DNA from: an uncultured bacterium
GTDB lineage: Bacteria; Verrucomicrobiota; Verrucomicrobiia; Verrucomicrobiales; V1-33
DNA length: 64,000 nucleotides
Direction: 5' to 3'
Assembly (NCBI GenBank): GCA_903954065.1
Contig: CAJBME010000131.1
Coordinates: 16,906 to 80,905 of the forward strand
Shown piece after piece: positions 7,571 to 30,072 of this stretch. The notes below the pieces were generated by a model. It ran no database searches. It worked only from the letters and a program-made list of their open reading frames with translations, and was not told where the DNA came from. Numbering within the stretch: position 1 is the stretch's first letter; each line of letters begins with the position of its first letter. The position numbers and the translations under genes were made by a program.

Positions 7571-8788
7571 ATGAATAAGCTGATTCTTTCATTAGGCCTT
7601 CCGAGTGTGCTGTGGGGAGCGACGCTGATGCTATGCGGGTGCGGTGGAGAAAACGGAGGACAGCCCGGACCGGCGAAGGGTGGCCAAGCGGAAACGTCTT
7701 CAGCGACGCCCCCTACTTTGGTCTTGTTGGGGATGCAGGATTATTTCAATTTGGAGCTGCTGGATCTTTTTGAAAAAGAAACGGGGGTCCGGATCGACTA
7801 TCAATTATACGAGGAACCAGACGAGGTTGAACCTCGATTGCGGTCCCAGCCGGGATCGGCTGACTTGATTGTCATCGACAGCTTCAACTTGCAGAAGTTA
7901 AGGCAACTGCATCTCTTGAGGGAGCTAGACAAATCGGCGGTTCCCAATCTGACCAATGCAGACCCGAAATTTTTGAATTTAAGCTGTGACCCGGGCAACT
8001 CGGTATCGGTTCCGTATCACTGGGGTACGACGTTGATTGCCTACCGCAAGGACAAGCTGCCCGATCCGGTTCGTTCTTGGAAGCTCTTGTGGGATCAGGC
8101 TCTGAAAGGGCAGGTCATGATGCTCAATGACTCGTTTGAACCGATGGCCGTGACCATGCTGCTCAGCGGGCATTCTGCTGAGACTCTCGATGACGCCCAC
8201 TACAGTCTGGCCGCCAGCACGTTGCTGGATCACTTGAAATCGATGGACGCCCGCTATGGCGATGACGGACAGGTCAAATCAGCCCTGCTGGACGGCTCCG
8301 TGACCGCCGCCATGTGCTACAGCGGCGATGCGGCCATGGTGGCCGCCGAGCAGCCCAACGTCGATTTTTTCATTCCTGAGGAAGGCGCGATGATGTGGGT
8401 CGATTGCATGGCTATCGCCCGCGACACGCGCGACCCGGTGGCCGCCCATGCGTTCCTCAATTTTTTCCTTCGTCCGGAAATTGCGGCGGCCAACACCAAC
8501 GCCATCCATTACGCTTCCACCAACCGTGAAGCGGAAAACCTTGTGAATGAGGAGTTAAAGAACGACCAGCGACTCTACCCCCCGCCCGCATTGAGGGCCA
8601 AACTCCAGCTCGTGCCCCAGCTTGACCGCGAGCGGGATGCCCTTGTCAACCGGCACTGGTACGCCGTGCGCCGCCAAGTGATGGACGGAGCCGATCCGGA
8701 ACCTGCCGAACCCGCCGCCGCCCCCGGAGCCACCGCAGCCGCCGCAGCCGCGGAACCAGCCCACCTCGCGGAGGAAATCAGCCAATGA
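7571..8788 (+). CDS. PotD/PotF-family polyamine-type periplasmic binding lipoprotein (orphan; no permease or ATPase genes nearby)
   Basis: Lipobox LMLCGCGG. Family blocks SVPYHWGTTLIAYRKDKL, CYSGDAAMV and FFIPEEGAMMWVDCMAIARD..AHAFLNFFLRPEIAA. Ala/Pro-rich C-terminal tail. Confidence 0.8.
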   Translation: MNKLILSLGLPSVLWGATLMLCGCGGENGGQPGPAKGGQAETSSATPPTLVLLGMQDYFNLELLDLFEKETGVRIDYQLYEEPDEVEPRLRSQPGSADLIVIDSFNLQKLRQLHLLRELDKSAVPNLTNADPKFLNLSCDPGNSVSVPYHWGTTLIAYRKDKLPDPVRSWKLLWDQALKGQVMMLNDSFEPMAVTMLLSGHSAETLDDAHYSLAASTLLDHLKSMDARYGDDGQVKSALLDGSVTAAMCYSGDAAMVAAEQPNVDFFIPEEGAMMWVDCMAIARDTRDPVAAHAFLNFFLRPEIAAANTNAIHYASTNREAENLVNEELKNDQRLYPPPALRAKLQLVPQLDRERDALVNRHWYAVRRQVMDGADPEPAEPAAAPGATAAAAAAEPAHLAEEISQ

Positions 8789-11538
8789 AGACGACCCGGT
8801 GGCAACACCTGTTTCCCACCATCCGCAGTCGGCTGCTCGCCGTGCTGACCGGATGCGTCCTCCTGCCGCTGATCGCCGCCCAGCTCTGGATGCACCTCGT
8901 CACCCGACGGTCACTCGAGGCAAGTGAAATCGGGAAATACCACTCGCTGACCACCGAGGCCGCCCGGCAGGTCACCGCCCAGATGAAGTTCTCCGAACGC
9001 AATCTGCGCACCCTCAGTAGCAATCACCTGCTGCGAAAACTGGAAACTGAGAAGGAATGGGTCGAAGCCATCGGCCACATCGCCCGAGCCGGCAACTTCT
9101 GGACCGACATCTCGCTGTACAACCAAGGCGGAAGCCTACTCGCCTCCACCTCGGAAGACTATACCGAACCGCAGGAACGCACCGAATGGTTCATGCGCGC
9201 CCGTCAGGGCGAAACCGTCCTCTCCACCCCACAGCTGGTCCTCGCCCGCTCCGGCCGCCTCGACGTCGCCGTCTACCTCCCGTTAGAAGGGTCCAAAACC
9301 CTGAAAAAAGTCATCGTGCGCGGACGCGTCCCGTTCGATGAAGTCGGCGTCTCCCTCTCGCAGGTCGACCTCGGGAAAAACGGCTATCTAGTCCTGCTCG
9401 ACGGACGCGGCAATGCCTTGTACCACCCTGATTCCAAACGCCTCCTGCGACGCTACGACGGCCCGGGACGCGCCGCCCTGACCACCAGCGAAGGCCATGG
9501 TATGGGCCGCGATGCCTCCGGACAGGAGGTCTACTGGATCGCTCACCGCCTCGTCCCCGAAGGGACCCGCGTCGGAGAAACCTGGACCTTGATGGCCGTC
9601 ATTCCACGCCACCAAATCATGGCCCTCGCCAGCCAAGGGACCCGCATTCACCTCGGTGCCGGCCTCGTCACCCTGCTGCTCGTCGGTTCACTCGGATACG
9701 GTTTCTCCCGGCGCATCACCCAGCCCATCGTCCACGCCGCCGAAGCCGCCCACCAGCTCGCCCTCGGCGAAACCCATACCCGCATCACCAGCGATCGCGG
9801 CCCACGAGAAATCCGCCAGCTAGCCCACGCCTTTAATTCCATGGTCGCCGAGGTGGTCCACCATCGCACCGATCTAGAAAAATTGGTCGAACTCCGCACC
9901 CGCAGCCTCCAGGAACAAAAAGAACGCTCCAACAATCTGTCCGCCCAGTTGCACGCCGCCTTCGAGGCCACCGAGGAAGCCATCCTCATCCTCCGCCACG
10001 ACGGCGTCGTCCTCGGCGCCAATCGCCGGTTTGGACTGTTCTTCGGGGCCCGCGTCGAATCACTCGCCGGCAGCACCTTCAACCAGTGGCAACAAGACTT
10101 CTTCGGATGCTTCGCCGACCCCCAGTCCATCTCCGATCGCTGGAATCAAACCGTCTCCCAAACCGCACGCGCCCAGCCCGAACCTAAATGGCAGGTGCTG
10201 CGCCCCGAACGCCGCGTCCTCGACGTTTATGCCTCTCCCCTGATCGCCGAATCCGGCGACAGCATCGGTCAACTCTGGGTCTTCCGCGACCTAACCCACG
10301 AACAACAACTCCAAGAAAGCTTGGAACAAGCCCAGAAAATGGAGGCCATCGGCCGCCTCGCCGGTGGCATCGCCCACGACTTTAACAATTTGCTCACCGG
10401 TATCCTCGGAAACTTGTCGCTCGCTGATGGCCACCTCTCCGCCCCTGGACTCGAAGACCCCCGCTACCACGTCCACTACGCCCGCTCCGCCGCCGAACGA
10501 GCCGCCCAGCTCGTCAAAGGGCTGCTCGGATTCTCCCGCCGGAGCCACATCGAACTCACCCACTGCGACCTCAACGCCGCCTTGCGCGAGTTCCACCCGC
10601 TCGTCCATCGCAGCCTCGGCGCCCAGTTCCCCGTCGAACTGAACCTCGATCCCACCCTCTGGGCCACCCACGCGGACATCAGCAAACTCGAACAGGTTAT
10701 CATGAACCTGTGCGTCAATGCCCGCGACGCCATGGAGTCAGGCGCCGGCAAAGGATCCATCACCATCCGCACTCACAACGAAGTCATCCCCGCTCAAAAC
10801 GCCCGCCGCTTCCAAGCCGTACCCGGGGAACACGTCTGCCTGTCCGTCACCGATACCGGCTGCGGCATGCCTCCGGAAATTATCGATAAAATCTTCGAGC
10901 CGTTCTTCACCACCAAAGAACAAGGCAAAGGCACCGGCCTCGGCCTCGCCACCTCCTACGGCATCGTCCAACAACACGGCGGATGGATGGAATGTGAGTC
11001 CGCCCCAGGTCAGGGCACCACTTTCCGCGTCTTCCTCCCACGCAATGAGGCCGTTGCTCCTCTCGAGGCCGCCCCCGCCGCCCCCGCCGCCCCCACCGAT
11101 GTCCGCGGCGATGAAACCATCCTGCTGGTCGATGACGAAATCATGGTCCGCATGGTCGCCGAAACCCTGCTCAAATCACACGGCTATCGCATCCTCACCG
11201 CCGGCGATGGCCAGGAAGCCGTCAGCGTCTTCCGCGCCCATCAAGACGAAATCAGCCTCATCCTCATGGACATGACCATGCCCAAAATGTCCGGCCTCGA
11301 GGCCTTCCAAGAACTGCGCACCCTCGACCGCTTTACCCCAGTCGTCATCTGCAGCGGTTACGTCGTCGACCTCGGAGAATGGCAGACGCCGCAAGGCGAC
11401 CGACCTAACGGCTTCGTCCAGAAACCCTACAACCTGCGCGACCTCGTCTCCACCGTGCGACATCTCATCGATACCTCCGCCGAACGCTCCTCCCAGTCAC
11501 GCCACCGCTCCCCCCAGACCGCTTCGCTCGCGAGTTAA
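8785..11538 (+). CDS. Hybrid sensor histidine kinase (TM, Cache-like periplasmic domain, HAMP, PAS, HisKA, HATPase, receiver)
   Basis: Start ATG overlaps the upstream stop (ATGA at 8785-8788). H-box [16 protein letters not shown]; N/G boxes [24 protein letters not shown]; receiver [24 protein letters not shown]. Confidence 0.9.
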
Positions 11539-14028: not shown

Positions 14029-14118
14029 GGAAGGGTGGCTGAGTGGTTTAAGGCACCTGACTCGAAATCAGACGTAGGGGCAACCTTACCGTGGGTTCGA
14101 CTCCCACCCCTTCCGCCA
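14029..14118 (+). tRNA. tRNA-Ser (anticodon CGA), class II with long variable arm and encoded CCA
   Basis: Hand-folded. Acceptor GGAAGGG/CCCTTCC; anticodon stem CCTGA/TCAGA with one top mismatch; loop CTCGAAA; variable arm CGTAGGGGCAACCTTACC; T-arm GTGGG-TTCGACT-CCCAC; then G-CCA. Closely parallels E. coli tRNA-Ser(CGA). Confidence 0.9.
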
Positions 14119-14194
14119 TATTCGTTCCACAAGGCTTTCAGCGCCGGAGGTGGAAAAGTAAAAACACGTTCAGCACGATTCAGGGCCATTCGTG

Positions 14195-14227
14195 GGTGTT
14201 TTTTTGATGTCCAAAACACCTTTTTTT
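14195..14227 (+). terminator. Putative intrinsic terminator after tRNA-Ser
   Basis: Stem ggtgtttt (14195-14202) / aaaacacc (14213-14220), followed by a T7 run at 14221-14227. Confidence 0.55.
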
Positions 14228-14672
14228 GCTGCGGCTCAAGTCGGCCGGACGGTCTTTTTTCAGTGCAGAGGATCAATGCGCGGACGTCGGAGGCAGTGTC
14301 CGATTCATGGTGTGCCCGACCGGATTGGCGGTTCATGCCCACCAAAAGGTCTCTTGGAGATCCCCAACACCTCCGGCACGAGTCACCGCCCCCCATGGTT
14401 TCTCCTGTTCACACACACCATAACCCCGAGTAGCATGAAGGCCTGCAGGACGGTCGCGCAGATCGCCACCGTCCAGAAAAACTGGATCACCGGCGTCAAG
14501 GTGGTCCACCATTCAATCACGCCGCCGATCATGAGGTACCAATCCGAACAAGTCGATGATACTTTTGCCTAGGGTGTGGACCGCGCCGGACTGAACCCTG
14601 GGAGCGCCGCAGTCGCCTGCCTTCTGGCACGCGATCCCAACGCCGGCCCCTCACAGACAATCCCGAACAAAA

Positions 14673-14887
14673 TCACCATCCAATCCGAGTAAGTCCGGCC
14701 ACGTGGTCGAAATGGACACGGATGAAAGTTGCTTCGTTGAGCCACCAGGCGGAAAGGCCGTTCGTGTCGAGGATCATTTCCATTCCTCCTCTTCGATCTG
14801 CTCGAAGTTCTCCTCGACAATCCGCTCAAGGCGCATGAGTTCCGCCACTATTTCCGGGTCATTGGCGGCGATTCCCGCAAATTTCAT
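14673..14887 (-). pseudogene. Decayed vapBC-like toxin-antitoxin remnant (37-aa antitoxin C-terminal fragment plus 34-aa internally deleted PIN toxin)
   Basis: Not in the ORF track (both under 60 aa). Minus strand 14887-14774 encodes MKFAGIAANDPEIVAELMRLERIVEENFEQIEEEEWK*. An ATGA overlap leads into 14777-14673, MILDTNGLSAWWLNEATFIRVHFDHVAGLTRIGW*. This joins a PIN N-terminus (MILDTN) directly to a VapC-type C-terminus (HFDHVxGLxRxxW), with the middle ~90 aa missing. Confidence 0.6.
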
Positions 14888-15010
14888 CCACGGGATTCGG
14901 AGGCGCCTGCTGAGTGCTTACAGTGCGGGTTGTTGGGACAACAGATGCCGTGGTTGGAAAATTCGGGGATTGTATCGATCATAAAATCGTATAACAGTTG
15001 CTCTATCGAT

Positions 15011-15223
15011 ATGGCTACGGTTACCGTTTCACCCAAGTTTCAGGTTGTCATCCCCAAGGATGTCCGGGATGGCCTGACCTTGTCACCTGGCGACAAGGTT
15101 GAGGTGATCCAGTTGGAGGGCAGGATCGAGCTGGTTCCTGTGCGATCCGCCGAGTCCATGCGCGGATTTCTCAAAAGACTCACTAACACCTTCGAAAGGG
15201 AAACCGACCGATGCCTGCCGTAG
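15011..15223 (+). CDS. vapB: AbrB/SpoVT (MazE-fold) family antitoxin
   Basis: MATVTVSPKFQVVIPKDVRDGLTLSPGDKVEV is a typical SpoVT/AbrB swapped-hairpin N-terminus. Start trimmed from 14930 to ATG 15011. Overlaps the downstream PIN gene by 13 nt. Confidence 0.8.
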   Translation: MATVTVSPKFQVVIPKDVRDGLTLSPGDKVEVIQLEGRIELVPVRSAESMRGFLKRLTNTFERETDRCLP

Positions 15224-15600
15224 TCGACTCGTCGGGGTGGATCGAGTATTTTACCGACGGATCGAACGCGGAACGCTTCGCCGGAGCCATCGCGGATGCG
15301 GACGCGTTGATCGTGCCATCGATCACGATCACCGAGGTATACAGGTGGGTGCTGCGCGAGGCGGGGTTATCCGATGCCCTTGCTGTCGCTGCTCTAATGA
15401 AACAGGGAAAGGTCATTCCCCTTAATGACCGCCTCGCGATTCTTGCTGCGGAAACCAGCCACAGGCACCGCCTCTCCTTGGCCGATGGAATCATTTACAC
15501 GACAGCCCTCTCCGCCTCCGCCGAGCTGCTCACGCAGGATTCCGATCTTGAGGGATTGCCAGGGGTCACCTACATCGCCCATCCCAAAAGGAACAGCTGA
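15211..15600 (+). CDS. vapC: PIN-domain ribonuclease toxin
   Basis: Acidic PIN residues in the expected order: VVDSS (D6), ITEV (E), SLADGI (D), TQDSD (D). 129 aa. Confidence 0.85.
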   Translation: MPAVVDSSGWIEYFTDGSNAERFAGAIADADALIVPSITITEVYRWVLREAGLSDALAVAALMKQGKVIPLNDRLAILAAETSHRHRLSLADGIIYTTALSASAELLTQDSDLEGLPGVTYIAHPKRNS

Positions 15601-15609
15601 GGAGAGAAT

Positions 15610-15639
15610 TTCAAAATTTCTCGCCAACGGGGGTATAAT
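15610..15639 (+). promoter_or_regulatory. Candidate promoter for the serpin gene (TTCAAA-N18-TATAAT)
   Basis: Perfect -10 TATAAT at 15634-15639, embedded in the inverted repeat gggggta..taccccc. Weak -35 at 15610-15615. Confidence 0.35.
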
Positions 15640-15664
15640 CATTTTTGTACCCCCTGAAACCCTG

Positions 15665-16942
15665 ATGAAACTGCTTCTCACCAGCCTGTTGATGGCCACC
15701 TTGAGCCTTGGAGCTATGCCCATTTCCCGCGCCCTCGAAAAACCGTCGGCCGCTGCGCACGCCGTCAACGCCTTGGGCGTCGACCTGCTCGCTCGGGGAA
15801 CAGCGGCGGGCACCAATACCGTACTTTCGCCGTATTCGATACAATCGGCCTTGGCCATGACCTATGCCGGAGCGGCCGGGGACACCCGGAGCCAGATGAC
15901 CGGCGTGCTGCACTATCCAGAGGACGAGAGCGCCTTGCACCAGTCGTTTGGGGAACTTCGGACGGCACTGGAAATGCTGAGCGCCAAACCCGTGGAGCAG
16001 GCACCAGCGGGAGCCAAAGCAGGCGGAGGTACCGCGCAGCCCATCCAACTCACCGTGGCCAACCGCCTCTTTGGACAACAAGGATATGAGTTCCGCCCGC
16101 CGTTTCTCGAATTAGTGGAACGCACCTACGGCGCCCCGCTGCAATCCATGGACTTCATCAGTCATGCCAACGCCGAGCGAGTAAAAATCAACAATTGGGT
16201 GGAAGAGCAGACGAAGCAACGGATCACTGACCTTATTCCGGGCAACGCCCTCACGAGCGACAGCCGCCTCGTACTGGTCAATGCCATTCACCTCAAAGCC
16301 CCGTGGGCCCGGGAGTTCCCCGCTCGCGCCACGCAGCCGCTGCCGTTCCATCTCAAAAATGGCGACCCCGTCAAAGTAGATACCATGCAGCGAACCGGCA
16401 AGATGGGATACGCAAAACTCGATGGATTTCAGGCGGTAACGGTCCCCTATCTCGGCGGCGAACTCCACTTGCTGGTGCTCCTCCCCGAAACCCGAGACGG
16501 TCTGGCCGCGCTCGAAGCAAAACTCACTCCCGAATTGCTGGCCGCCTGCGCCTCCTCCACCCTAACGGAAATCGAGCTCTCTCTCCCGAAATTTAAACTC
16601 GAGCCGCCCGTCTTTAAACTAGCCGAAACCTTGCGTTCGCTCGGCATGACCCACGCCTTCGACGACCCCAAAGGCAGCGCCAACTTCGACCGCATGGCTC
16701 CGCGCACGCCCAAAGACTACCTCATGATCTCAGAGGTCTTTCATAAGACCTACATGACGCTGGATGAAAAAGGAACCGAAGCCGCAGCGGCCACCGCCGT
16801 CACCATGACCAGATCCACCAGCCTCATCGAGCCAACCACACCAGTCGCCGTGCGCGTCGACCACCCGTTCCTCTTTGCCATTCAGCACCGCAGCAGCGGG
16901 ACTTGCCTCTTTCTTGGGCGTCTCTGCGATCCGCGAGAATAA
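15665..16942 (+). CDS. Secreted serpin (serine protease inhibitor family)
   Basis: Start trimmed from 15425 to ATG 15665, giving signal peptide MKLLLTSLLMATLSLGAMPISRA. Inhibitory-type hinge EKGTEAAAATAV. C-terminal serpin signature VDHPFLFAIQHRSSGTCLFLGRLCDP. Confidence 0.9.
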   Translation: MKLLLTSLLMATLSLGAMPISRALEKPSAAAHAVNALGVDLLARGTAAGTNTVLSPYSIQSALAMTYAGAAGDTRSQMTGVLHYPEDESALHQSFGELRTALEMLSAKPVEQAPAGAKAGGGTAQPIQLTVANRLFGQQGYEFRPPFLELVERTYGAPLQSMDFISHANAERVKINNWVEEQTKQRITDLIPGNALTSDSRLVLVNAIHLKAPWAREFPARATQPLPFHLKNGDPVKVDTMQRTGKMGYAKLDGFQAVTVPYLGGELHLLVLLPETRDGLAALEAKLTPELLAACASSTLTEIELSLPKFKLEPPVFKLAETLRSLGMTHAFDDPKGSANFDRMAPRTPKDYLMISEVFHKTYMTLDEKGTEAAAATAVTMTRSTSLIEPTTPVAVRVDHPFLFAIQHRSSGTCLFLGRLCDPRE

Positions 16943-17139: not shown

Positions 17140-18057
17140 TTACTGGGCAGGCACTTCGTCGTTGGGAGCGTCGGCCGGACGATCGGTCAGACGACGCACC
17201 ACTTCTTGGGGTTCATCCGGCTTAGATGGATCATACAACCGGCCACCGGCCACCCGGACCGCCCCGCTTTGGGCAATTTTCAATTCGGGAACGGAATTAT
17301 TTTGCGTCTCAAATACTTCCTCAGTGAGTTTTTTCCCATCCGGATCAATGACGATGTGGCGGTACATTTTCGGACCGGTGAGGAAGAAGGCGTGCAAGTT
17401 ACTATCGCCATCTAGGGTGGCTTGTGGTTCCTGCTGTAGGACGAGGCGCCCGATGGTATACGTGGCCAGAACGCGCCCGGTGCGTTCCTCGCGGATGCGC
17501 ACGTACATGGTCATTTTGTCATCCTCCTGAAAACTGAGCAGACTCATTTCGCGGTAACTGGTCGGTTCACCAGGTTTGTTGATGCCGATTTTGTCCTTCC
17601 AGAGGAGACTGCCATCGGTCACCGCGAAAGAGCGGACATTCGAGACCAGGTGCTGCCCAAATTCGGAAAAGTAAACATTGGCGCGGACCGAATAATTTCC
17701 TAAACCGCCCAGCGGATAAAACCGGCCAAGACTGATGGTTTCGCGAATACTCTCGCCGCGCCCGAGCACATGAGGCCGCAGCCGAGGGCCTCCGCCATGG
17801 GCCAAAATCGATCCTTCACCAATTCGATCGACATTGAATGACAACCAATTGCGACCACTGGCATCACCCAAAATCACATCTTTACCCGCACGATTCGCGA
17901 TCGTCACCGTCACCTGAATCGGCTCAAACGCGACAAAACGATCGCGATTCAGCTCCAAAGTGACCTGTAACTGGGCGGACGCGCGGGGAGCCGCCACGAA
18001 GATGAGTGCCATCATCAAACCGAGAACAGTAGAAAAAAATGGACGAACGCGAGACAT
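17140..18057 (-). CDS. Hypothetical secreted protein
   Basis: Signal peptide MSRVRPFFSTVLGLMMALIFVAAPRASA. No recognisable motif. Last gene of the 21402-17140 co-directional set. Confidence 0.55.
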   Translation of the reverse strand: MSRVRPFFSTVLGLMMALIFVAAPRASAQLQVTLELNRDRFVAFEPIQVTVTIANRAGKDVILGDASGRNWLSFNVDRIGEGSILAHGGGPRLRPHVLGRGESIRETISLGRFYPLGGLGNYSVRANVYFSEFGQHLVSNVRSFAVTDGSLLWKDKIGINKPGEPTSYREMSLLSFQEDDKMTMYVRIREERTGRVLATYTIGRLVLQQEPQATLDGDSNLHAFFLTGPKMYRHIVIDPDGKKLTEEVFETQNNSVPELKIAQSGAVRVAGGRLYDPSKPDEPQEVVRRLTDRPADAPNDEVPAQ

Positions 18058-18181
18058 AGCGGGTGGCGGTATTCGGAGCGGAACGCGTGAATGCTTTCCT
18101 GCTCCGCAGCAAAAATGACTTATCTTATTATGACCTTAAATGTGAAACGTGAAACATGAAACTTGGGGCCCCGGACCGGCA

Positions 18182-20251
18182 TCAGGGGGCGCGATCAGAG
18201 GCGGTCCTGAATCCGACGGTCGGGTCGCCCACCCCCGCATTCAGCGCCGGACGGCGTTGCTGCAGATCCGCCGGGCGCGCCGCGTATGATCCTCCTCGTA
18301 GCACAGGAACTTGCTGATCAAGAATATCCGGATGCAGCATGGTTGAATCAGTCCACTCGCTCACATTGCCAGCCATGCCGACGACTCCATACGGACTGAT
18401 GTCCGTCGTGGTAAAAGCATCCACCGGAGCCCAACTCGCATAACCATCTTTGCGCCCAAGATCAGGCCCGCTATCGACATCAGCCCCCGTATTGGCGCTC
18501 GGCGCATCGGGATGGCTCCCCCATGGATACAACCGACCGTCCGTCGAGCGCGCCGCTTTCTCCCATTCCATCTCGGTCGGCAGTCGCTGCCCCCGCCACG
18601 CGGCGTAAGCCCATGCGTCCCAATAATCCACATCCGTGACCGGACAGTTCACATCCACAGCCTGACCGCGCCAGACGCCACCCTTGCGGGCCGTAGCCAA
18701 CAGTTCATCCCACGCCGGCGGACGGTGAGTGGATTTGGTGGCTGGCTGCCGCGGATGATCATAACGATGTCCTGACGAGCTGGCCAAATGCTCGAGAAAT
18801 CGAGCGTATTGCGCGATGGAGACTTCGTATTTCGATATCCAGAAAGTGGGCAATTCGCGCATTTCTCCGCCTTGGTAGATGAAGGAACCACCGGGAATCC
18901 GGACCATTTCGTCGAGCAGCCGCGGTTGGGGCGCGCGCCAGTAAGGAATCATGTGGAACAGCATCCAGCCGCCGAGCGCTGCGACCGTGGCGAAGGAGGC
19001 CTGTATCCACCGGCGTTTGGCCTGCTGGCGCCGCTCCAGCGGGCGAGATCCTGTCGAGAGCCGTCTTGTCTTGGAGGGTCGGGCCTCGGCTAGCTGGCGC
19101 CTGGCCTCGACGACGAAAGGCATCAATTCGGCCCAGGTTCTGAGGCCGCGGCCGGAGACGTCACGCACCCGGGCCATGATTTCCTGAAATTCTGGGGCCG
19201 GACGGGCCGGATCAAGAATCTGTTGAGCGGCTCCGAACAGGGCGAGCATTTCCGCGCTCGGATCGAGAAACGGCGAGGCCGTGCCCATGGCGATATTGAT
19301 GACCCGGGGCAATTCATCAGGCCCGAGGATGACATCGCCCGGAGTCAGGGCGCGCCGCGCCAGACCATGATCTTCAAACCACAACACAGCCTCGGCGGCC
19401 GCCTGCATCAGATTCAGTACCGATTCCTGAGGCAGTCGCTGACGACGCGACCGCAGCTGATCCACACTGCGGCCCTGAACCCACTCACGCGTATAAAAAA
19501 TCCTTCCATCCTGCTCCTGCGCCTCGTAGACCGCCGCAATTTGCGGGTGCACCACCGCGGCTTGCGCCCGCACCAGCGAGCGAAAAGCCTGCGCCGACGG
19601 AGGATGACTGGCCGCCGCCGTACGCAGTCGCTCCAACAAAACCACCCGATTGACCGACCTCTGCAACGCCCGGTAGGTGACCGTTTCGTCGTTCGTGCTC
19701 AACACTTCCAATAATTCATAATCACCCAGGAGCGGCGCCGTCGAGGCCCCTTCCCGCGTCGGACCGCCCGCCGTCTGATCCCCGCGCTCAGCGACAGCCG
19801 CAGCCACCGCTGGTGCGCCAAAGCCTGCCGATTCAGGAGGAGGAGCGAAACGAGGCGGGAGCGCGACCGCCGCCGGCGCCGCCAGCGGCACATCCGAAGG
19901 AACCTTCCGCTCCGCAGACAACGCCGTCACCCACCCAACCACCGCCTCTATCGGCAGCGGCACCGCCGGTAACAACAACTCGCCAGGCAACCGCCCAGCC
20001 CAAGCACCCAAATCTCCTTCAGCTAAAAACACCGCCCGCACCGGACCGACCGCCGCCCGCCACTCCCCCACCATGGAGGCATGTCCAGCCGTCGTGATCA
20101 CAAGTTCAACCGAAGCCCCGGCCGTTTCTTGCCAAGATCGGGCCTCGGAAATACCGCCAGCCACCAAACACGGCCCGAATCCGGCCCGGCCGAGCGCTTG
20201 ACGCAGCTCCTGCCGAACACCCGCATCATCATGGACGATTAGGATGACCAT
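18182..20251 (-). CDS. Pseudo-receiver / Ser-Thr pseudokinase / TM / FGE-sulfatase (SUMF1-like) domain protein
   Basis: The N-terminus MVILIVHDDAGVRQEL.. is receiver-like, but VELVITT sits where the phospho-Asp is expected. The kinase-like region lacks a Gly-loop, has VVLLE in place of VAIK, ARRALTPGD in place of HRDLKPxN and NIA in place of DFG. One TM helix (WIQASFATVAALGGWMLFHMIPYW). C-terminal FGE-sulfatase blocks: MVRIPGGSF, RLPTEMEWEKAAR, GNVSEW, LRGGSY. Confidence 0.75.
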   Translation of the reverse strand: MVILIVHDDAGVRQELRQALGRAGFGPCLVAGGISEARSWQETAGASVELVITTAGHASMVGEWRAAVGPVRAVFLAEGDLGAWAGRLPGELLLPAVPLPIEAVVGWVTALSAERKVPSDVPLAAPAAVALPPRFAPPPESAGFGAPAVAAAVAERGDQTAGGPTREGASTAPLLGDYELLEVLSTNDETVTYRALQRSVNRVVLLERLRTAAASHPPSAQAFRSLVRAQAAVVHPQIAAVYEAQEQDGRIFYTREWVQGRSVDQLRSRRQRLPQESVLNLMQAAAEAVLWFEDHGLARRALTPGDVILGPDELPRVINIAMGTASPFLDPSAEMLALFGAAQQILDPARPAPEFQEIMARVRDVSGRGLRTWAELMPFVVEARRQLAEARPSKTRRLSTGSRPLERRQQAKRRWIQASFATVAALGGWMLFHMIPYWRAPQPRLLDEMVRIPGGSFIYQGGEMRELPTFWISKYEVSIAQYARFLEHLASSSGHRYDHPRQPATKSTHRPPAWDELLATARKGGVWRGQAVDVNCPVTDVDYWDAWAYAAWRGQRLPTEMEWEKAARSTDGRLYPWGSHPDAPSANTGADVDSGPDLGRKDGYASWAPVDAFTTTDISPYGVVGMAGNVSEWTDSTMLHPDILDQQVPVLRGGSYAARPADLQQRRPALNAGVGDPTVGFRTASDRAP

Positions 20252-20280
20252 GGAGGACTTTTTAAAGCATCGCGAGGCCG

Positions 20281-21402
20281 CTACTGCGGAAGCGGGGGGA
20301 ACAGGGAGTCATCCACTTGACTCCCGGGGGGAGGACGCGTGTCCAGCCGCTCCACCGGCTGCTGCAGCCCGCGCTCACCAGGTTCAGCCCGACGACTGGC
20401 CAGCTGGGCCGGCTTGGCGAGAACATCCTGCAAGTGATCGTTATAATACAATTTCACGACATAGCCGTGATACCGCCGCCCACCGTCCGGAGCTGGCGGA
20501 AAACTGGCCACCCGGCGATACGGTTGATCCAAAAATTCCACGGTGTTCGTCGTCCAGCTAGGAAACTCGCCGGCCAGCCAACGGTAGTTGTCCGTCACCG
20601 CATCCGTTTCCACGATTTCTCCATCGACCTCATCATAAAACTGGGTCACGACGGAGACACGGCCCGGATCAATGACCGCCCCTTCCAAAGCCTGCACCGG
20701 AATGCGCAGCGTCAACGCCTCCACCTCCCCGGTGGCTGACTGCGAACGCTCCAAAATCTTGCCCAAGCGCAAAGGAGTTTCCACTTCCCGCGGCGGCCGC
20801 GCCTCACCTTGCTCGAACCGAGCCTGCGCCATCTTAAAATAAATCCCGGCACCTTCGCCCAAGGCAAAAAGTTGATCCCACACCGGGGAGGCTTTGGCCG
20901 GAAGAGACATTTTCTCGTAAGTGGAGGCCAGCTCATAGAGCAGTCGCGGATGGGCAGGCTGCAAATCCACCGCGGCCCGCAACTGCGTCAGCGCAGCCTT
21001 CATGTCACCGCGTTCACGACTGGCCAGCGCACTCTCAAGAAAAAAGAGAACCCGCTCATCGGTCAGAGGAAAAGCCTCGGCCGGCGCGGCCACCACAGCG
21101 ACTGGCGCGGCCACTGAAGCCACTGGCGCGGCGGAGATCGCTTCGGCGACGGCGGGCGGAGCGGTCACCAGCTCGGCGGCGGCCGGAGCCGGGGTCTCGA
21201 CTGGCGCGACGAGCGCCGCGGACGGAGGAGCAGCGGACGTTACGGCCGCGGCTGCGGCCGCCCGGGAGGACGAGCCGTGTTTACGATGCAACGCCCATCC
21301 AATGGCGCCCAGCTGACCGACCAGCAGCGCCCCCAGCAGCCAAACGGCCAGATTCAAGGCTATGCGTCCCCTCCGTGGGGCTGGTAGCAGCGGATGAGTC
21401 AT
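20281..21402 (-). CDS. Membrane-anchored protein with Ala/Pro-rich linker and TPR-like helical region
   Basis: Start trimmed to ATG 21402 (MTHPLLPAPRRGRIALNLAVWLLGALLVGQLGAIGWAL). The TPR-like segment is GDMKAALTQLRAAVDLQPAHPRLLYELASTYEKM. Ends 29 nt before the next gene start. Confidence 0.5.
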   Translation of the reverse strand: MTHPLLPAPRRGRIALNLAVWLLGALLVGQLGAIGWALHRKHGSSSRAAAAAAVTSAAPPSAALVAPVETPAPAAAELVTAPPAVAEAISAAPVASVAAPVAVVAAPAEAFPLTDERVLFFLESALASRERGDMKAALTQLRAAVDLQPAHPRLLYELASTYEKMSLPAKASPVWDQLFALGEGAGIYFKMAQARFEQGEARPPREVETPLRLGKILERSQSATGEVEALTLRIPVQALEGAVIDPGRVSVVTQFYDEVDGEIVETDAVTDNYRWLAGEFPSWTTNTVEFLDQPYRRVASFPPAPDGGRRYHGYVVKLYYNDHLQDVLAKPAQLASRRAEPGERGLQQPVERLDTRPPPGSQVDDSLFPPLPQ

Positions 21403-24961: not shown

Positions 24962-25591
24962 TTAAGCGCGACGGCGGCGGGCCACGAGAGCCAAGCTGGC
25001 GAAGAGCAGCGAGACTGACATTGGCTCAGGAATCGCCTTCAGGCTGAGTGAAGGAGCGGCACCGAGGGCAGTCGTGATGCTTGGGCCACCGAGGGAGCCG
25101 AAGAGCACGCTCGAACCAGCCAAGCCGATGTCAGCCGTGCCGGCGAACACTGGAGCGTCAGCAGCGAAAGCGACACCGTGCTTCACAATGGCGAACTGAT
25201 CGGATGTACCGAGAGCCGCATTGTTGCCGATCAAGGTGTAGATCGACTGACCCACGAGTGGGCTGTTGCCGGCGATAGGCACCGACTTGTCCGCTTGATA
25301 CAGACCGTCGACATCGTTACCGATGGCGTTGGTTGCACCGAAGGTGACGAAAGCAGCGAGAAGCGCATCGCGGCCCGCTGGGGATGTCAGACCAGCGATC
25401 AGCGCCGTTGGATCTGAAGTCCAGGTTCCGATTTGCACCGAACCGCCTTTCAGCAGAGCAGCACCGCTGTTCAGCGAGATTGGCAGCTGGGAGCCGCTAT
25501 CTTCGTTGTAGTTGGTGACGAGGACGTTACCAGCTTGGAGTTGAAGACCGCCGAGCAAAGCGAGGACGGCTCCGAGGAGTAGTTTTTTCAT
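24962..25591 (-). CDS. PEP-CTERM sorting-domain secreted protein
   Basis: N-terminal signal peptide MKKLLLGAVLALLGGLQLQA. The C-terminus IPEPMSVSLLFASLALVARRRRA shows PEP motif, TM helix and basic tail. Confidence 0.85.
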   Translation of the reverse strand: MKKLLLGAVLALLGGLQLQAGNVLVTNYNEDSGSQLPISLNSGAALLKGGSVQIGTWTSDPTALIAGLTSPAGRDALLAAFVTFGATNAIGNDVDGLYQADKSVPIAGNSPLVGQSIYTLIGNNAALGTSDQFAIVKHGVAFAADAPVFAGTADIGLAGSSVLFGSLGGPSITTALGAAPSLSLKAIPEPMSVSLLFASLALVARRRRA

Positions 25592-26790: not shown

Positions 26791-29700
26791 TTAACGAGAT
26801 CCTGTCCCGCGGGTCGTAGCCGCAGGCTCGGACGCTGGTTTTTTACCCCAATTCCAAGGGAGAAGACGCGATCCACCCGACTTTTCAGGATTTCCCGCGG
26901 CCGCCCGGGCCGAGGCATTCTCGCGTTCCCAAAAGGCGGGAGAACGTTTTTCGCTCGGCAGCGAAGTCGGAGATTCTGGCTCCGGCGTTTGAGCCGCCGC
27001 TGTCGGCTGCGCCTCGACCCCAGCCGGCGCGACCGTCGGCTTCAGGGTAAGCGCTTTCACATTCGCCTCGATCACCGGCGCCGTCGCGGCGGCTGGCACT
27101 GCCTCCGCGGTCGGTTGCGGCCTCACTGCAGGCTGCGAACGCCCCGCTTCGTTGGGAAGCAAGGTGTGGGCCGAATCAAGCGGGATGTCGCCATTCTCCG
27201 TCGGCAGGATGACATCGCTGGAATCATACGCCGGTCTGGCGAATTTTTCCGCTTCCTTGCCCACCGCCGTGCGACGCAATTGATCCGTGTGCATGCCCTC
27301 GAGCTCCTCCGAGGTCTCGACAATCCGCGGTTGGATGAACATCAACAATTCCGACCGGCGGCGGCCTTTGGTAGTGTTGCCGAGCATACCGCGCAAAATC
27401 GGCACCCGGGTGAGCCATGGAATGCCTTTGTTAGTGCGGTCATCCGTCTCTTGAATAACCCCGCCAATGACGGCAATGCCGCCGTTGGGCACTGTGATCT
27501 CGGTGGTCAGGAACTGCTGGGTGATTTCCGGAACCAGCTGCTCACCGACTTGGCGGTCCGGCCCAAGACCATCGTTGATCTCGGTGATGTTCAGAGTCAC
27601 CTCGTTTTTCGAGTTGATGAGCGGAGTGACGAGAATCTCCAGGTTCACATCCTCGTATTCCACATTGGTGTTGAAGGTCGTCGTGCCGTTAGTGACGTTC
27701 GACTGCGTATTCGAGGGCACCGGAATGCGGCGTCCCACTGAAATATTCGCTTCTTTGTTGTTCGCCGTAAAAACGAACGGGCGCGACAGAATCTGGGCCC
27801 GGCCCGTGGACTCCACAGCCCGGACATAGACGTTGAAGAATTCACCCAAGGCCCCGTAGAGGTTCAGCCCGCCGGTAACATTCGTGAAGCTGGAGATATC
27901 CATGAGGTCACCAGGGTCAATGATGCCGCTGGTATTACCCAAGTTGGTCAAGGCTCCAGCCCACGTGATATTTTGTCCGCCAATGACGACATCTTCGGCT
28001 TTCCGGATGATGTCCATGCCGTATTGCATGTCGTCATTCAGGGTGATTTCGGCGATAACCGCAGAAATGGCCACCTGCAAAGGACGCACATCCATTTCGC
28101 CGAGGACTTCCTCGATCCGTGTCAGGTGTTCAGGCGGACCTGCGATCAAGAGTGAATTGGAGCGAGGCTCCGCGATGAGCAGCGTTTTGCCCACAATGGT
28201 CGAGGACGGGATGAGTTCCTGACCGGTGCTACTGTTCGAGCTGCTGCGGCCGCTGCTGAGGCCACCGCCACCCGCGCCACCACCACCACCCGCGCCGCCG
28301 CGCCCCCCAGCACCGCCACGCGCCGCATTGGCACCAAATGTCTGGCCACCGCCAAACGCCGCATTACCCTGAAAGCCGGTGCCAGTGCCTTGACGACCTC
28401 CCGCACCACCCCGGGCCCCACCAGCCACCGCACCCTGCGCCCCGGCCGCCCCGCCCGCGGCACCACCACCACCAATGACCTCGGTGCCGCGACCAATGGC
28501 GTCCGTAGCAATATTCAGGAAATCCTCAACACGGATGAAACGAAGCTGGAAACGCTTCAGGTTCTTCACGTTCGCTTCCTTATCGAGCTCCTTGATCAAG
28601 TCCTTCAGATACACCAAATCACTCGGACGCCCGGAAACAAGCACCTCGTTGGTGCGCGTAATCGCTTTGACCATGACCGTGGATTCATCAGGCGGCAGAG
28701 CTCCCCCCGCCTGTCCCGGCTGGCCCGCGACCCCACCCAAAACCCCCGGAGGCAAACCCGCCTGCAACTGGTCGGCCGCCACGTTGACCGCCACCCCGCG
28801 CGTGCCACCGCTGCCCGAAGCCTGCCCACGAAGCTTCGTCTGCGCCGCCAGAATTTCCGTCAGCACTTGCGCGACTTCTTCCGCATCCGCCCGCTCCAAT
28901 TGGAAAAATTCCTTCTCCACCGCCGCACTGGGGACGTCGATTTTTTCCTGCAAGGCAATGGCCAAGCGAATGGCCGGCAGATTGTCGGTGATGATCAGCG
29001 CACCCGCGGCTGGCACCGGCGTGATTTTGCTGACGTTTTGGCGGCTTTGCCCCAGAATCGCCTGCAGTGATCGCGCGGCATCCTCAGCCCCGATATGCTT
29101 GAGATAGAGGACGTAATTGATGATTTGCTCCGTTTCAGGAAGCATTTTGGGGTCGGTATAAACCGCCTGCACGCTGGAGCCTTGCTCGACCTGAGGACCG
29201 CGGGCCGTCGGGATGACCTTGTCGACCCCTTTAATATCAGACGGGATGATGCTGTACCCATTGAGCAGGAGAAACGCCTTGATGTAGTCGGCGGCCTGAT
29301 TGCGGGTCATCTTGCCGTTGCTCCGCAGCGGGAGCTGCGTGCCCTGAATGGTGCCGTCGCGCATGGTGCTGCGCCCCGTGAAAGCCTCGTATTTGTCAAT
29401 GATCTCAGCGATGTCCATCGCCGATTCCGTAAACTCAATCTCAGGAACTTCGGGATCGTATCCCGGCTCCGCCGCAATGACCGCACCGGCGTCTGTCCCG
29501 CCAGCAGAACCAGCAGCTGTCGCGCCAGCGGCCGCAGCAGGAGTGGCGGAGGCAGCTCCAGCCGCCGGACGCCCTGCACTCGAGGAGCCAGGCAGACTGG
29601 CCGGACGCCGCGGACGATCCCCCGGCGTCGAGGTCGGAGCCAACGAAGGAGTTTCGACCGTGGGTGGCACCGTTTCAGACGAAGTCGGGGCCTCCACGAC

Positions 29701-30072
29701 GACCGGAGAGACCGCGCCCCCCGGCAACGGACTCTCCGTCGCCTCAGTCACCGCAACCGGGGCCGCGGGCACCGGCTCAGCAGAGACCGGCGCCGGAACG
29801 GCTTCAGCCGGAGCTACCGGAGCTACCGGAGCCGCCGGAGCCGCCGCGCCTGGGGCTGAGGCGGTGGCGGCGACTGGGGCAGCGGCAGGCGCAGAAGGAG
29901 GAGGGGTGACGACGCTCCGCGGCCGCACCACCGGCCGGGCGGGGCGGGCCCCGGGCTGGTTAGGGGTCACAGGCGCGGCCGGAGTCTCCTCCTGATTTTG
30001 AGCCTTGAGGACGACCAGGAGACCGAGAGCCAGCCCGGAAGGCAGCAGATACTTCGCAAAAGATTTGTCCAT
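26791..30072 (-). CDS. Secretin (GspD/PilQ family) with long low-complexity extensions
   Basis: C-terminal secretin core: GRAQILSRPFVFTANNKEANISVG..TEITVPNGGIAVIGGVIQETDDRTNKGIPWLTRVPILRGMLG..SELLMFIQPRIV. N0-like block EIEFTESAMDIAEIIDKYEAFTG. The ~200-aa N-terminus is Pro/Ala-rich. A Gly-rich insert sits near nt 28215-28480, and a ~200-aa tail follows the secretin core. Confidence 0.9.
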   Translation of the reverse strand: MDKSFAKYLLPSGLALGLLVVLKAQNQEETPAAPVTPNQPGARPARPVVRPRSVVTPPPSAPAAAPVAATASAPGAAAPAAPVAPVAPAEAVPAPVSAEPVPAAPVAVTEATESPLPGGAVSPVVVEAPTSSETVPPTVETPSLAPTSTPGDRPRRPASLPGSSSAGRPAAGAASATPAAAAGATAAGSAGGTDAGAVIAAEPGYDPEVPEIEFTESAMDIAEIIDKYEAFTGRSTMRDGTIQGTQLPLRSNGKMTRNQAADYIKAFLLLNGYSIIPSDIKGVDKVIPTARGPQVEQGSSVQAVYTDPKMLPETEQIINYVLYLKHIGAEDAARSLQAILGQSRQNVSKITPVPAAGALIITDNLPAIRLAIALQEKIDVPSAAVEKEFFQLERADAEEVAQVLTEILAAQTKLRGQASGSGGTRGVAVNVAADQLQAGLPPGVLGGVAGQPGQAGGALPPDESTVMVKAITRTNEVLVSGRPSDLVYLKDLIKELDKEANVKNLKRFQLRFIRVEDFLNIATDAIGRGTEVIGGGGAAGGAAGAQGAVAGGARGGAGGRQGTGTGFQGNAAFGGGQTFGANAARGGAGGRGGAGGGGGAGGGGLSSGRSSSNSSTGQELIPSSTIVGKTLLIAEPRSNSLLIAGPPEHLTRIEEVLGEMDVRPLQVAISAVIAEITLNDDMQYGMDIIRKAEDVVIGGQNITWAGALTNLGNTSGIIDPGDLMDISSFTNVTGGLNLYGALGEFFNVYVRAVESTGRAQILSRPFVFTANNKEANISVGRRIPVPSNTQSNVTNGTTTFNTNVEYEDVNLEILVTPLINSKNEVTLNITEINDGLGPDRQVGEQLVPEITQQFLTTEITVPNGGIAVIGGVIQETDDRTNKGIPWLTRVPILRGMLGNTTKGRRRSELLMFIQPRIVETSEELEGMHTDQLRRTAVGKEAEKFARPAYDSSDVILPTENGDIPLDSAHTLLPNEAGRSQPAVRPQPTAEAVPAAATAPVIEANVKALTLKPTVAPAGVEAQPTAAAQTPEPESPTSLPSEKRSPAFWERENASARAAAGNPEKSGGSRLLPWNWGKKPASEPAATTRGTGSR

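Follow-up and report, generated by a model that had tools for sequence, protein, structure and literature searches.

Bacterial pseudokinases have barely been explored. In the C-terminal module of Mycobacterium tuberculosis MviN (MurJ; family ActPs3), a degraded kinase domain with a deleted activation loop is combined with one transmembrane (TM) helix and an extracytoplasmic carbohydrate-binding domain, and this module acts as a scaffold that regulates peptidoglycan synthesis (PMC12599244). EssB/YukC of type VIIb secretion, a structural subunit, is also bitopic and combines a pseudokinase fold on the cytoplasmic side with an extracytoplasmic domain (PMC12599244). Active receptor kinases in which a kinase fold, a TM helix and an FGE-sulfatase (formylglycine-generating enzyme) domain follow one another are found in the Proteo1 family of the bacterial serine/threonine kinase atlas. 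FGE-fold domains that lack the catalytic Cys pair serve as binders in pFGE/SUMF2 and as a structural part in PorK/GldK. For amidases, activation of the Amidase_3 enzyme LytH of Staphylococcus aureus requires the extracellular tetratricopeptide repeats (TPRs) of ActH, which are also sufficient for it (PMC9245657). Here we describe a conserved three-gene unit on the minus strand (positions 17140-21402) of a 64,000-nt stretch of DNA from an uncultured bacterium of the Verrucomicrobiales (contig CAJBME010000131.1); this whole stretch is called the window below. The genes encode a TPR protein (gene 1), a central protein with a receiver-like domain, a kinase-like domain, a TM helix and an FGE-like ectodomain (gene 2), and an exported 305-aa protein (gene 3). 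Quite likely, the central protein is the core of a scaffold that spans the envelope, has no catalytic role and includes the products of genes 1 and 3 as partners. The components and their logic are of known kinds (a transmembrane pseudokinase, an FGE-fold binding domain, a TPR partner); their combination is undescribed in the surveys and literature that we found. New are the receiver-pseudokinase-TM-FGE-like protein itself, its two dedicated partners and a recurrent amidase gene, so far only in Verrucomicrobiota.

The kinase-like region of the central protein scored below the Pfam threshold (13 bits), and an NCBIfam PknB-type model matched the protein at 3e-9. When a family profile of residues 168-405 was compared to the PDB, PknA (3.2e-18) and PknB (7e-17) of M. 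tuberculosis were matched. Foldseek searches with the AlphaFold2 model also ranked PknB and PknA first (PknB E 5.6e-13, TM-score ~0.6 normalised to the target). The original prediction, made by a model from the nucleotide letters and their open reading frames (ORFs), had seen no Gly-rich loop, VAIK Lys, HRD Asp or DFG in this region, and HMMER profile alignment to PknA confirmed these losses rather than revealing catalytic Lys or Asp residues that had been misaligned by eye. GxGxxG is absent, with STNDET where it is expected; the VAIK Lys of β3 is replaced by E207 (local motif V-L-L-E-R), the αC Glu by L226, HRD by R299-R300-A301, the catalytic-loop Lys and Asn by T303 and D306, and DFG by N319-I320-A321. 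Since ~11 residues lie between N319 and the next helix of the model, the activation segment is missing as well. By its motifs, the domain is a predicted pseudokinase: a bilobal kinase fold in which the VAIK Lys, the HRD Asp and the DFG Asp are all absent.

The N-terminal domain was recognised through its family. In the window protein alone, Pfam did not detect Response_reg at E up to 1. A family profile (residues 1-120, 26 members) matched almost exclusively receivers in the PDB (E 1.7e-5 to 1e-3), headed by 3luf (1.7e-5) and PrrA (5.6e-5). AlphaFold2, run with the family alignment, gave a (βα)5 fold for this part with pLDDT >90, and the DSSP pattern agrees. In the alignment to CheY and Spo0F, H7-D8 lie at the acidic pair, T54 at D57, an Ala at T87 and a Val at K109. 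The receiver-like fold without a phospho-acceptor Asp that had been read from the sequence is therefore real, and the domain also lacks the equivalents of Thr87 and Lys109.

FGE-sulfatase is the sole domain that Pfam detects above threshold in the central protein (PF03781; E 8.4e-39, 134 bits vs cut-off 23.3). In alignments to human FGE (1y1e, 2aii) the catalytic C336 and C341 correspond to Ala658 and Leu663, in agreement with the earlier remark that the C-terminal Cys pair is missing. The relatives of this ectodomain in the PDB are pFGE, CalU17 and FGE; the nearest by sequence is pFGE/SUMF2 (E 1.8e-16), itself a Cys-less paralogue. The FGE-fold lipoprotein PorK/GldK is a further solved sequence relative (E ~2e-7). 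In the type IX secretion system, PorK/GldK is a structural part on the periplasmic side, and the FGE fold as such is C-type-lectin-like. Specific to the family is a conserved ectodomain insert, Q502-P503-x2-K506-x4-P511-x2-W514. A single TM helix between the kinase-like region and the FGE domain, which had been proposed as well, is supported by the sequence and by a model helix spanning residues 403-439 (hydrophobic core 415-438). Because the basic cluster RRQQAKRR precedes this helix, the positive-inside rule places the N-terminus in the cytoplasm and the C-terminus in the periplasm, and the protein is predicted to be bitopic with a periplasmic ectodomain.

Protein searches returned 48 full-length relatives (36-99% identity), after which the next matches were ordinary kinases at ~1e-14. 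With one genome scanned per GTDB species, 104 relatives were obtained, from which 80 loci were kept. Together with the loci L001 and L002 and the window, these gave a census of 83 family ORFs aligned to the family profile hidden Markov model (HMM). The loci were retrieved via two peptide patterns, and the counts do not give the prevalence of the family. Some lengths and gene gaps are approximate, as ORFs were called from their first start codon; the distance tree of the family is rough and midpoint-rooted. All relatives of the species scan with a named phylum in their record are Verrucomicrobiota; over the central protein, the window agrees at ~98% with a metagenome-assembled genome of the Verrucomicrobiales.

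The catalytic Asp and Cys residues are missing throughout the census: Asp occurs in none of the 83 members at the HRD-Asp or the DFG-Asp position (the latter is Asn in 78 and His in three), and Cys in none of them at the FGE catalytic positions. The β3 Lys column holds Glu in 39/83 and Lys in 13/83 members, and the αC Glu is present in 12/83. The N-terminal domain is found in 44 members and absent from the other 39, which are ~500 aa long. The ORFs are intact across the phylum at 28-98% identity. Conservation at non-catalytic sites is high, with 39 ectodomain positions conserved in at least 90% and Q197, S199, R202, E243, E256, R316 and N319 conserved in the pseudokinase. These intact ORFs and conserved positions indicate purifying selection on a non-catalytic function.

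In relatives of the Chthoniobacterales type the N-terminal domain passes Pfam Response_reg (42-57 bits vs cut-off 30.2), and the kinase region passes Pfam Pkinase (42-65 bits, over approximately the first 135-155 of 263 model positions). Three of these relatives (L029, L032 and L037) keep all receiver phosphorylation residues (DD, D57, S87, K109), and some Chthoniobacterales-type relatives keep the β3 Lys alongside the intact receiver. An intact receiver implies a cytoplasmic phospho-input in these relatives. Judged by the alignment columns, all members are pseudokinases, whereas the dead receiver and the Lys-to-Glu exchange are derived and belong to the window's clade and the clades next to it. 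The description of the central protein as 'triply dead' thus holds for the window's clade and fails for the family, in which the Chthoniobacterales-type members retain an intact receiver and the β3 Lys and about half of the members have no receiver at all. P0063, an active kinase-TM-FGE protein that keeps HRD and DFG, is collinear with the window protein in both domains (FGE E 7e-14, N-lobe 4e-9). This collinearity suggests descent from a receptor kinase, and active Hanks-type FGE-sulfatase receptor kinases are a likely evolutionary source of the family.

Two variants of the architecture were seen. In a member from the Chthoniobacteraceae (L032:5173-7572), a DUF4388 domain lies between the intact receiver and the pseudokinase (Pfam 2.4e-21). 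Three members (L053, L058 and L059, e.g. L059:4498-7542) form a divergent sub-architecture of ~1015-1030 aa with H-L-H in the DFG column; in the Pfam scan of L059 a receiver was found, followed by a long unassigned region, with zero kinase matches. A T-R-R-L sequence at the juxtamembrane residues 395-398 of the window protein (window 19058-19069) fits the pT-x-x-L preference of FHA domains. We dropped this motif as a family feature since it is present in 29/83 members only, namely the window's clade and its neighbours.

The two flanking genes were analysed with iterated HMM searches of the ORFs in every fetched locus and by all-against-all clustering of the flanking ORFs. A gene 1 homologue lies directly upstream of the central gene on the same strand in 62/83 loci, a gene 3 homologue directly downstream in 51 loci, and the triad is complete in 39/81 loci. 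The three genes are co-conserved as a same-strand unit far beyond chance, and the co-occurrence by which the original prediction was to be checked is found across the loci. In the clustering of flanking ORFs no other neighbour was common to >13 loci, except for an Amidase_3 gene.

The original prediction had called the gene 1 product a membrane-anchored TPR-like protein, which stood up in the Pfam and family-profile searches. Near its N-terminus lies a TM helix (residues 14-38, nt 21289-21363), followed by a variable Ala/Pro-rich linker, approximately two TPRs (residues ~118-195, nt 20818-21051), a β-rich C-terminal domain that is conserved (residues ~205-340) and a conserved [LF][FL]PP tail. 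In the PDB its family profile matched TPR proteins alone (profile positions 123-202, best natural matches ~1e-13), and the β-rich domain had zero detectable relatives in this search. The gene 3 product was likewise correctly described as a secreted protein of unknown function: it starts with a signal peptide (residues 1-28, cleavage ASA|Q with an invariant Gln) and had zero matches in Pfam and NCBIfam and only chance-level profile matches to PDB sequences. Its AlphaFold2 model (pLDDT 85) shows two β-sandwich domains (residues 30-147 and 150-270), and its conserved disordered C-terminal tail reads R-[RK]-L-S-[DE]-R-P-x-G-x-P. The gene 3 family is large (1370 representatives at 50% identity). 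Among the 150 matches listed nearly all are stand-alone proteins of ~290-310 aa, so that these provide no domain fusion hinting at a function. In a profile-profile comparison the C-terminal domain of the gene 1 product and the gene 3 family were unrelated (probability 0.7%).

In 28 loci an Amidase_3 gene (~207-aa product; Pfam 1e-41 to 1e-50) follows the 305-aa gene directly on the same strand, for example at L034:8427-9056 and L029:9045-9686. The distance between both ORFs is 0-240 nt, mostly <110 nt. An amidase HMM run over all fetched loci (~6-kb flanks) found the amidase only together with the 305-aa gene, and most of the 28 loci also carry the TPR gene. They fall into five clades of the distance tree, which include members without a receiver, with an intact receiver and with a dead receiver. 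The spread over five clades suggests that the linkage is probably ancestral, and the position of the amidase gene in 28 loci points to cell-wall hydrolysis rather than to an unspecified ligand. In L002, the N-terminus of the amidase is a hydrophobic stretch ending in Cys, which resembles a lipoprotein signal. The amidase is collinear end-to-end with CwlV and Nostoc AmiC2, and LytH is among its solved relatives (E 8e-21); E. coli AmiA and B. henselae AmiB are matched only to query residue 140 and E. coli AmiC to residue 169. In view of the known structures of these enzymes, such alignment breaks are consistent with a compact type of amidase without the autoinhibitory insert.

None of the seven pseudokinase families in the recent surveys (ActPs1-3, DLHK, GLW, CP1 and DYD) includes Verrucomicrobiota, a receiver or an FGE-like ectodomain. 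Compared by motif only, they also differ from the window protein with its V-L-L-E-R, R-R-A and N-I-A: in the proteobacterial GLW family, GLW replaces HRD and β3 carries LLLL/W, and the VALT / Y-- family is actinobacterial (bacterial pseudokinase surveys). MviN, which has VALT / Y-- where VLLE / NIA is found here, belongs to another phylum, is fused to a flippase, has no receiver and carries an ectodomain that is folded differently; it works with PknB and FhaA instead of a TPR protein and a β-sandwich protein. EssB/YukC, which belongs to a secretion apparatus of Firmicutes, has an unrelated ectodomain and other partners, and no secretion genes are co-conserved in the fetched loci. The active FGE-sulfatase kinases, although they share the domain order, keep Lys, HRD and DFG, lack an N-terminal receiver and have no known conserved TPR or 305-aa partners. 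Neither pFGE, a soluble protein of the endoplasmic reticulum, nor PorK/GldK, an outer-membrane-associated lipoprotein, is fused to a pseudokinase. ActH, which controls an Amidase_3 enzyme, resembles the gene 1 product in being a membrane-anchored TPR protein. However, the TPRs of ActH are extracytoplasmic whereas this orientation is a prediction here, ActH is a polytopic rhomboid-type protein whereas the gene 1 product is single-pass, no sequence kinship beyond the generic TPR was found, and the amidase gene is not adjacent in the window. Literature searches on FGE-sulfatase with kinase or pseudokinase gave no description of a receiver-pseudokinase-TM-FGE family, and the earlier judgement that this is not a characterised system is in line with these searches and the surveys.

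We tentatively propose that the family forms a non-catalytic trans-envelope scaffold or coupler that was ancestrally tied to the control of a peptidoglycan amidase; this composite is our leading reading, held with slightly less than even confidence. In the window protein, the receiver and the PknB-like kinase domain, both dead, would face the cytoplasm and the Cys-less FGE-fold domain the periplasm, where it may form a complex with the TPR protein and the β-sandwich protein. Through its conformation or oligomerisation, the pseudokinase would act as a scaffold linking this periplasmic complex to the cytoplasm, without phosphotransfer by the central protein itself. Ancestrally, the input would be phosphorylation of the intact N-terminal receiver by a histidine kinase, which would make the flow at least partly inside-out. 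The ancestral periplasmic target may have been the compact amidase encoded directly downstream; taken by itself, this part of the proposal is possible and somewhat doubtful. Activation of the amidase could depend on the TPR protein or another partner, following the logic of ActH-LytH, GerS-CwlD or FtsEX-EnvC-AmiA/B. In FtsEX, a cytoplasmic state can control a periplasmic amidase. In the window's lineage, where the amidase gene has lost its place beside the unit, the receiver would have decayed, which would leave regulation via protein contacts only. A more specific version, which we regard as unlikely, is that the family is a hitherto unrecognised class of peptidoglycan-amidase regulators: the phosphorylated receiver would switch the pseudokinase, whose FGE-fold ectodomain, together with the TPR anchor and the β-sandwich protein, would toggle the compact Amidase_3 enzyme. 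This would amount to an inside-out two-component relay to the cell wall, with the window's lineage as a later form that has lost the phospho-input.

Several observations weigh against the amidase-linked scaffold. The amidase was not found within the 64-kb window, nor within 10 kb in L083 and L084 of the same clade, and this clade appears to have lost the link. A gene for the bifunctional NAD(P)H-hydrate repair enzyme nnr/YjeF lies directly after the amidase in 13 loci (e.g. L047:9359-10843), and E. coli has an nnr-tsaE-amiB neighbourhood; the linkage could therefore be partly inherited synteny. The triad is also not complete everywhere. In one clade the 305-aa gene and the amidase occur with no adjacent TPR gene, in another the TPR gene is present and the 305-aa gene missing, and both partner genes are lacking from six loci. 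The periplasmic location of the gene 1 product is deduced from its signal-anchor-like TM helix, and the physical complex of the three proteins, the direction of signalling and the amidase as target are likewise what we infer. For the gene 3 model, Foldseek returned only generic Ig-like, arrestin-like and MG-domain matches (TM-score 0.25-0.3); being uninformative, these were rejected as a basis for assigning a function. Finally, the Asn at the DFG position and the β3 Lys and αC Glu of some relatives make nucleotide binding possible in parts of the family.

Of the other explanations, the one put forward by the original prediction is an outside-in sensor: a small molecule or glycan outside the cytoplasm would be recognised by the FGE-like ectodomain, protein contacts of the pseudokinase would pass the signal on, and there would be no specific link to peptidoglycan amidases. 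Active kinase-TM-FGE-sulfatase receptor kinases exist, as P0063 and the Proteo1 family of the kinase atlas illustrate, the window protein is collinear with the former, and its clade has no adjacent amidase. We nevertheless find this sensor doubtful, because it leaves unexplained why two periplasmic partner genes are co-conserved, why relatives have an intact receiver with its cytoplasmic input and why an amidase gene directly follows in 28 loci. The same ectodomain could be read through its best solved sequence relative, the Cys-less pFGE/SUMF2, as a binder of C/S-x-P-x-R peptides that monitors the export or maturation of sulfatases. Verrucomicrobiota are rich in sulfatases, and one relative has a sulfatase gene beside the TPR gene (PF00884, L084:4902-6407, divergent from it). 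This is a single case among the loci examined (1/85) and probably a coincidence in a sulfatase-rich phylum; neighbour analysis gave no sulfatase cluster and the conserved tails of the partners lack a C/S-x-P-x-R motif, which makes a sulfatase monitor improbable.

That the ectodomain is still an enzyme and modifies a partner, as the source annotations 'formylglycine-generating enzyme' and 'SUMF1/EgtB/PvdO family nonheme iron enzyme' imply, is at least as improbable. Conserved polar residues of the ectodomain, including D542, D545 and E632 together with the Q-P-K-P-W insert, speak for this reading, but both copper-binding catalytic Cys are absent from every member of the census. Models of EgtB, SenA and OvoA match only the FGE-like C-terminal part, at 19-65 bits vs cut-offs of 360-420 (EgtB at positions 202-389 of 413), with no match to a DinB-type iron domain. 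Partial and far below the cut-offs, these matches leave the 'nonheme iron enzyme' label without support. A kinase locus for defence against phages, either working or as a decaying relic, was also considered, because PADLOC PD-T4-6 kinase models match residues ~170-325 (best E 9e-17), MADS6 is weakly matched and a VapBC pair lies nearby. These matches are confined to the generic kinase-like region, in which the catalytic residues are absent, and the partner proteins match no defence model. Conserved chromosomal synteny (secretin, rlmN, pabB) and phylum-wide conservation are unlike a defence island, and intact, conserved ORFs oppose decay. We rejected the defence reading on the PADLOC results and regard it as very improbable in either form.

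The family offers a natural series in one conserved gene context, from members with an intact receiver and β3 Lys to members in which receiver and kinase are fully dead. Such a series lends itself to studies of the features that a pseudokinase scaffold requires for its function. A functional amidase link, if there is one, would reveal how cell-wall hydrolysis is controlled in Verrucomicrobiota and would represent a third kind of amidase control beside the LytM and ActH types. For annotation, the names 'formylglycine-generating enzyme' and 'nonheme iron enzyme' are misleading for this family and unfit for inferring sulfatase maturation capacity.

The layout of the unit in the window is summarised in the table. 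The ORFs, their common direction, the 29-nt gap between gene 1 and gene 2 and the convergence on a serpin gene had all been given correctly by the original prediction. The three ORFs lie head-to-tail, and the gap between gene 2 and gene 3 is 124 nt. For gene 1 the ATG giving 373 aa was taken as the start because homologues begin at the same site, and the TTG-initiated ORF to 21474 is an over-extension.

Table. Features of the three-gene unit and the adjacent serpin gene in the window (positions of the window; residues are those of the gene 2 product)
Feature	Position	Strand	Extent	Basis or remark
Gene 1, TPR-anchor protein	20281..21402	-	373 aa from ATG	ORF and Pfam TPR_11 7e-7
Gene 2, central protein, predicted bitopic: pseudo-receiver, linker, pseudokinase, TM helix, Cys-less FGE-like ectodomain	18182..20251	-	689 aa	
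Pseudo-receiver domain	19907..20251	-	residues 1-115	
Predicted pseudokinase domain	19076..19744	-	residues ~170-392	
TM helix	18938..19009	-	residues ~415-438	
FGE-sulfatase-fold ectodomain	18200..18913	-	residues 447-684	
Gene 3, exported tandem β-sandwich protein	17140..18057	-	305 aa	
Secreted serpin, convergent with gene 3	15665..16942	+		Pfam 1.6e-99; outside the conserved unit

Promoter and terminator scans of the region gave no excess over the shuffled expectation, and an Rfam scan had zero matches at E up to 0.1. The gap between gene 2 and gene 3 (18058-18181) is AT-rich and contains GTTTCA(T/C) three times consecutively, with no promoter, terminator or Rfam match there; it could be a candidate internal regulatory site. 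Plus-strand ORFs antisense to the genes (e.g. 19223-19714 and 20317-20739) were rejected as real genes since their clustering across loci is explained by the conserved sense genes. We treated them as shadows of the GC-rich coding strand.

Outside the unit, the flanks vary between clades. A relative with 80% identity shares the left-hand synteny with the window (secretin, rlmN, pabB); on its right side, the place of the serpin is taken by genes for vWF_A/YfbK_C and an extracytoplasmic function (ECF) sigma factor. The serpin, whose ORF begins at 15665 with a signal peptide, was found again only in L003, a locus of the same species, and is absent from L083, L084, L001 and L002. While it is a convergent neighbour as the original prediction stated, it was rejected as a member of the co-conserved unit because it is species-specific and replaced by other genes in the 80%-identical relative.

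Further neighbours lie on both sides. The genes for a solute-binding protein (7571-8788) and a hybrid histidine kinase (8785-11538; dCache, HAMP, PAS, HisKA, HATPase, REC) share an overlap of 4 nt and lie ~7 kb from the operon; this pair was not seen in the inspected flanks of related loci. The product of 24962-25591 (-) ends in a PEP-CTERM-like motif (IPEP...RRRRA). The secretin of 1093 aa is encoded at 26791-30072, and the string secretin, rlmN, pabB and TPR gene is syntenic in L083. A tRNA-Ser(CGA) gene (14029-14118) is followed by a VapBC-type pair of a MazE/AbrB-type antitoxin (14930-15223) and a PIN toxin (15211-15600). The GC content over 14029-16942 is ~0.57, compared to 0.62-0.63 in the operon, and this tRNA-Ser/VapBC/serpin stretch looks like a small species-specific islet beside a tRNA.

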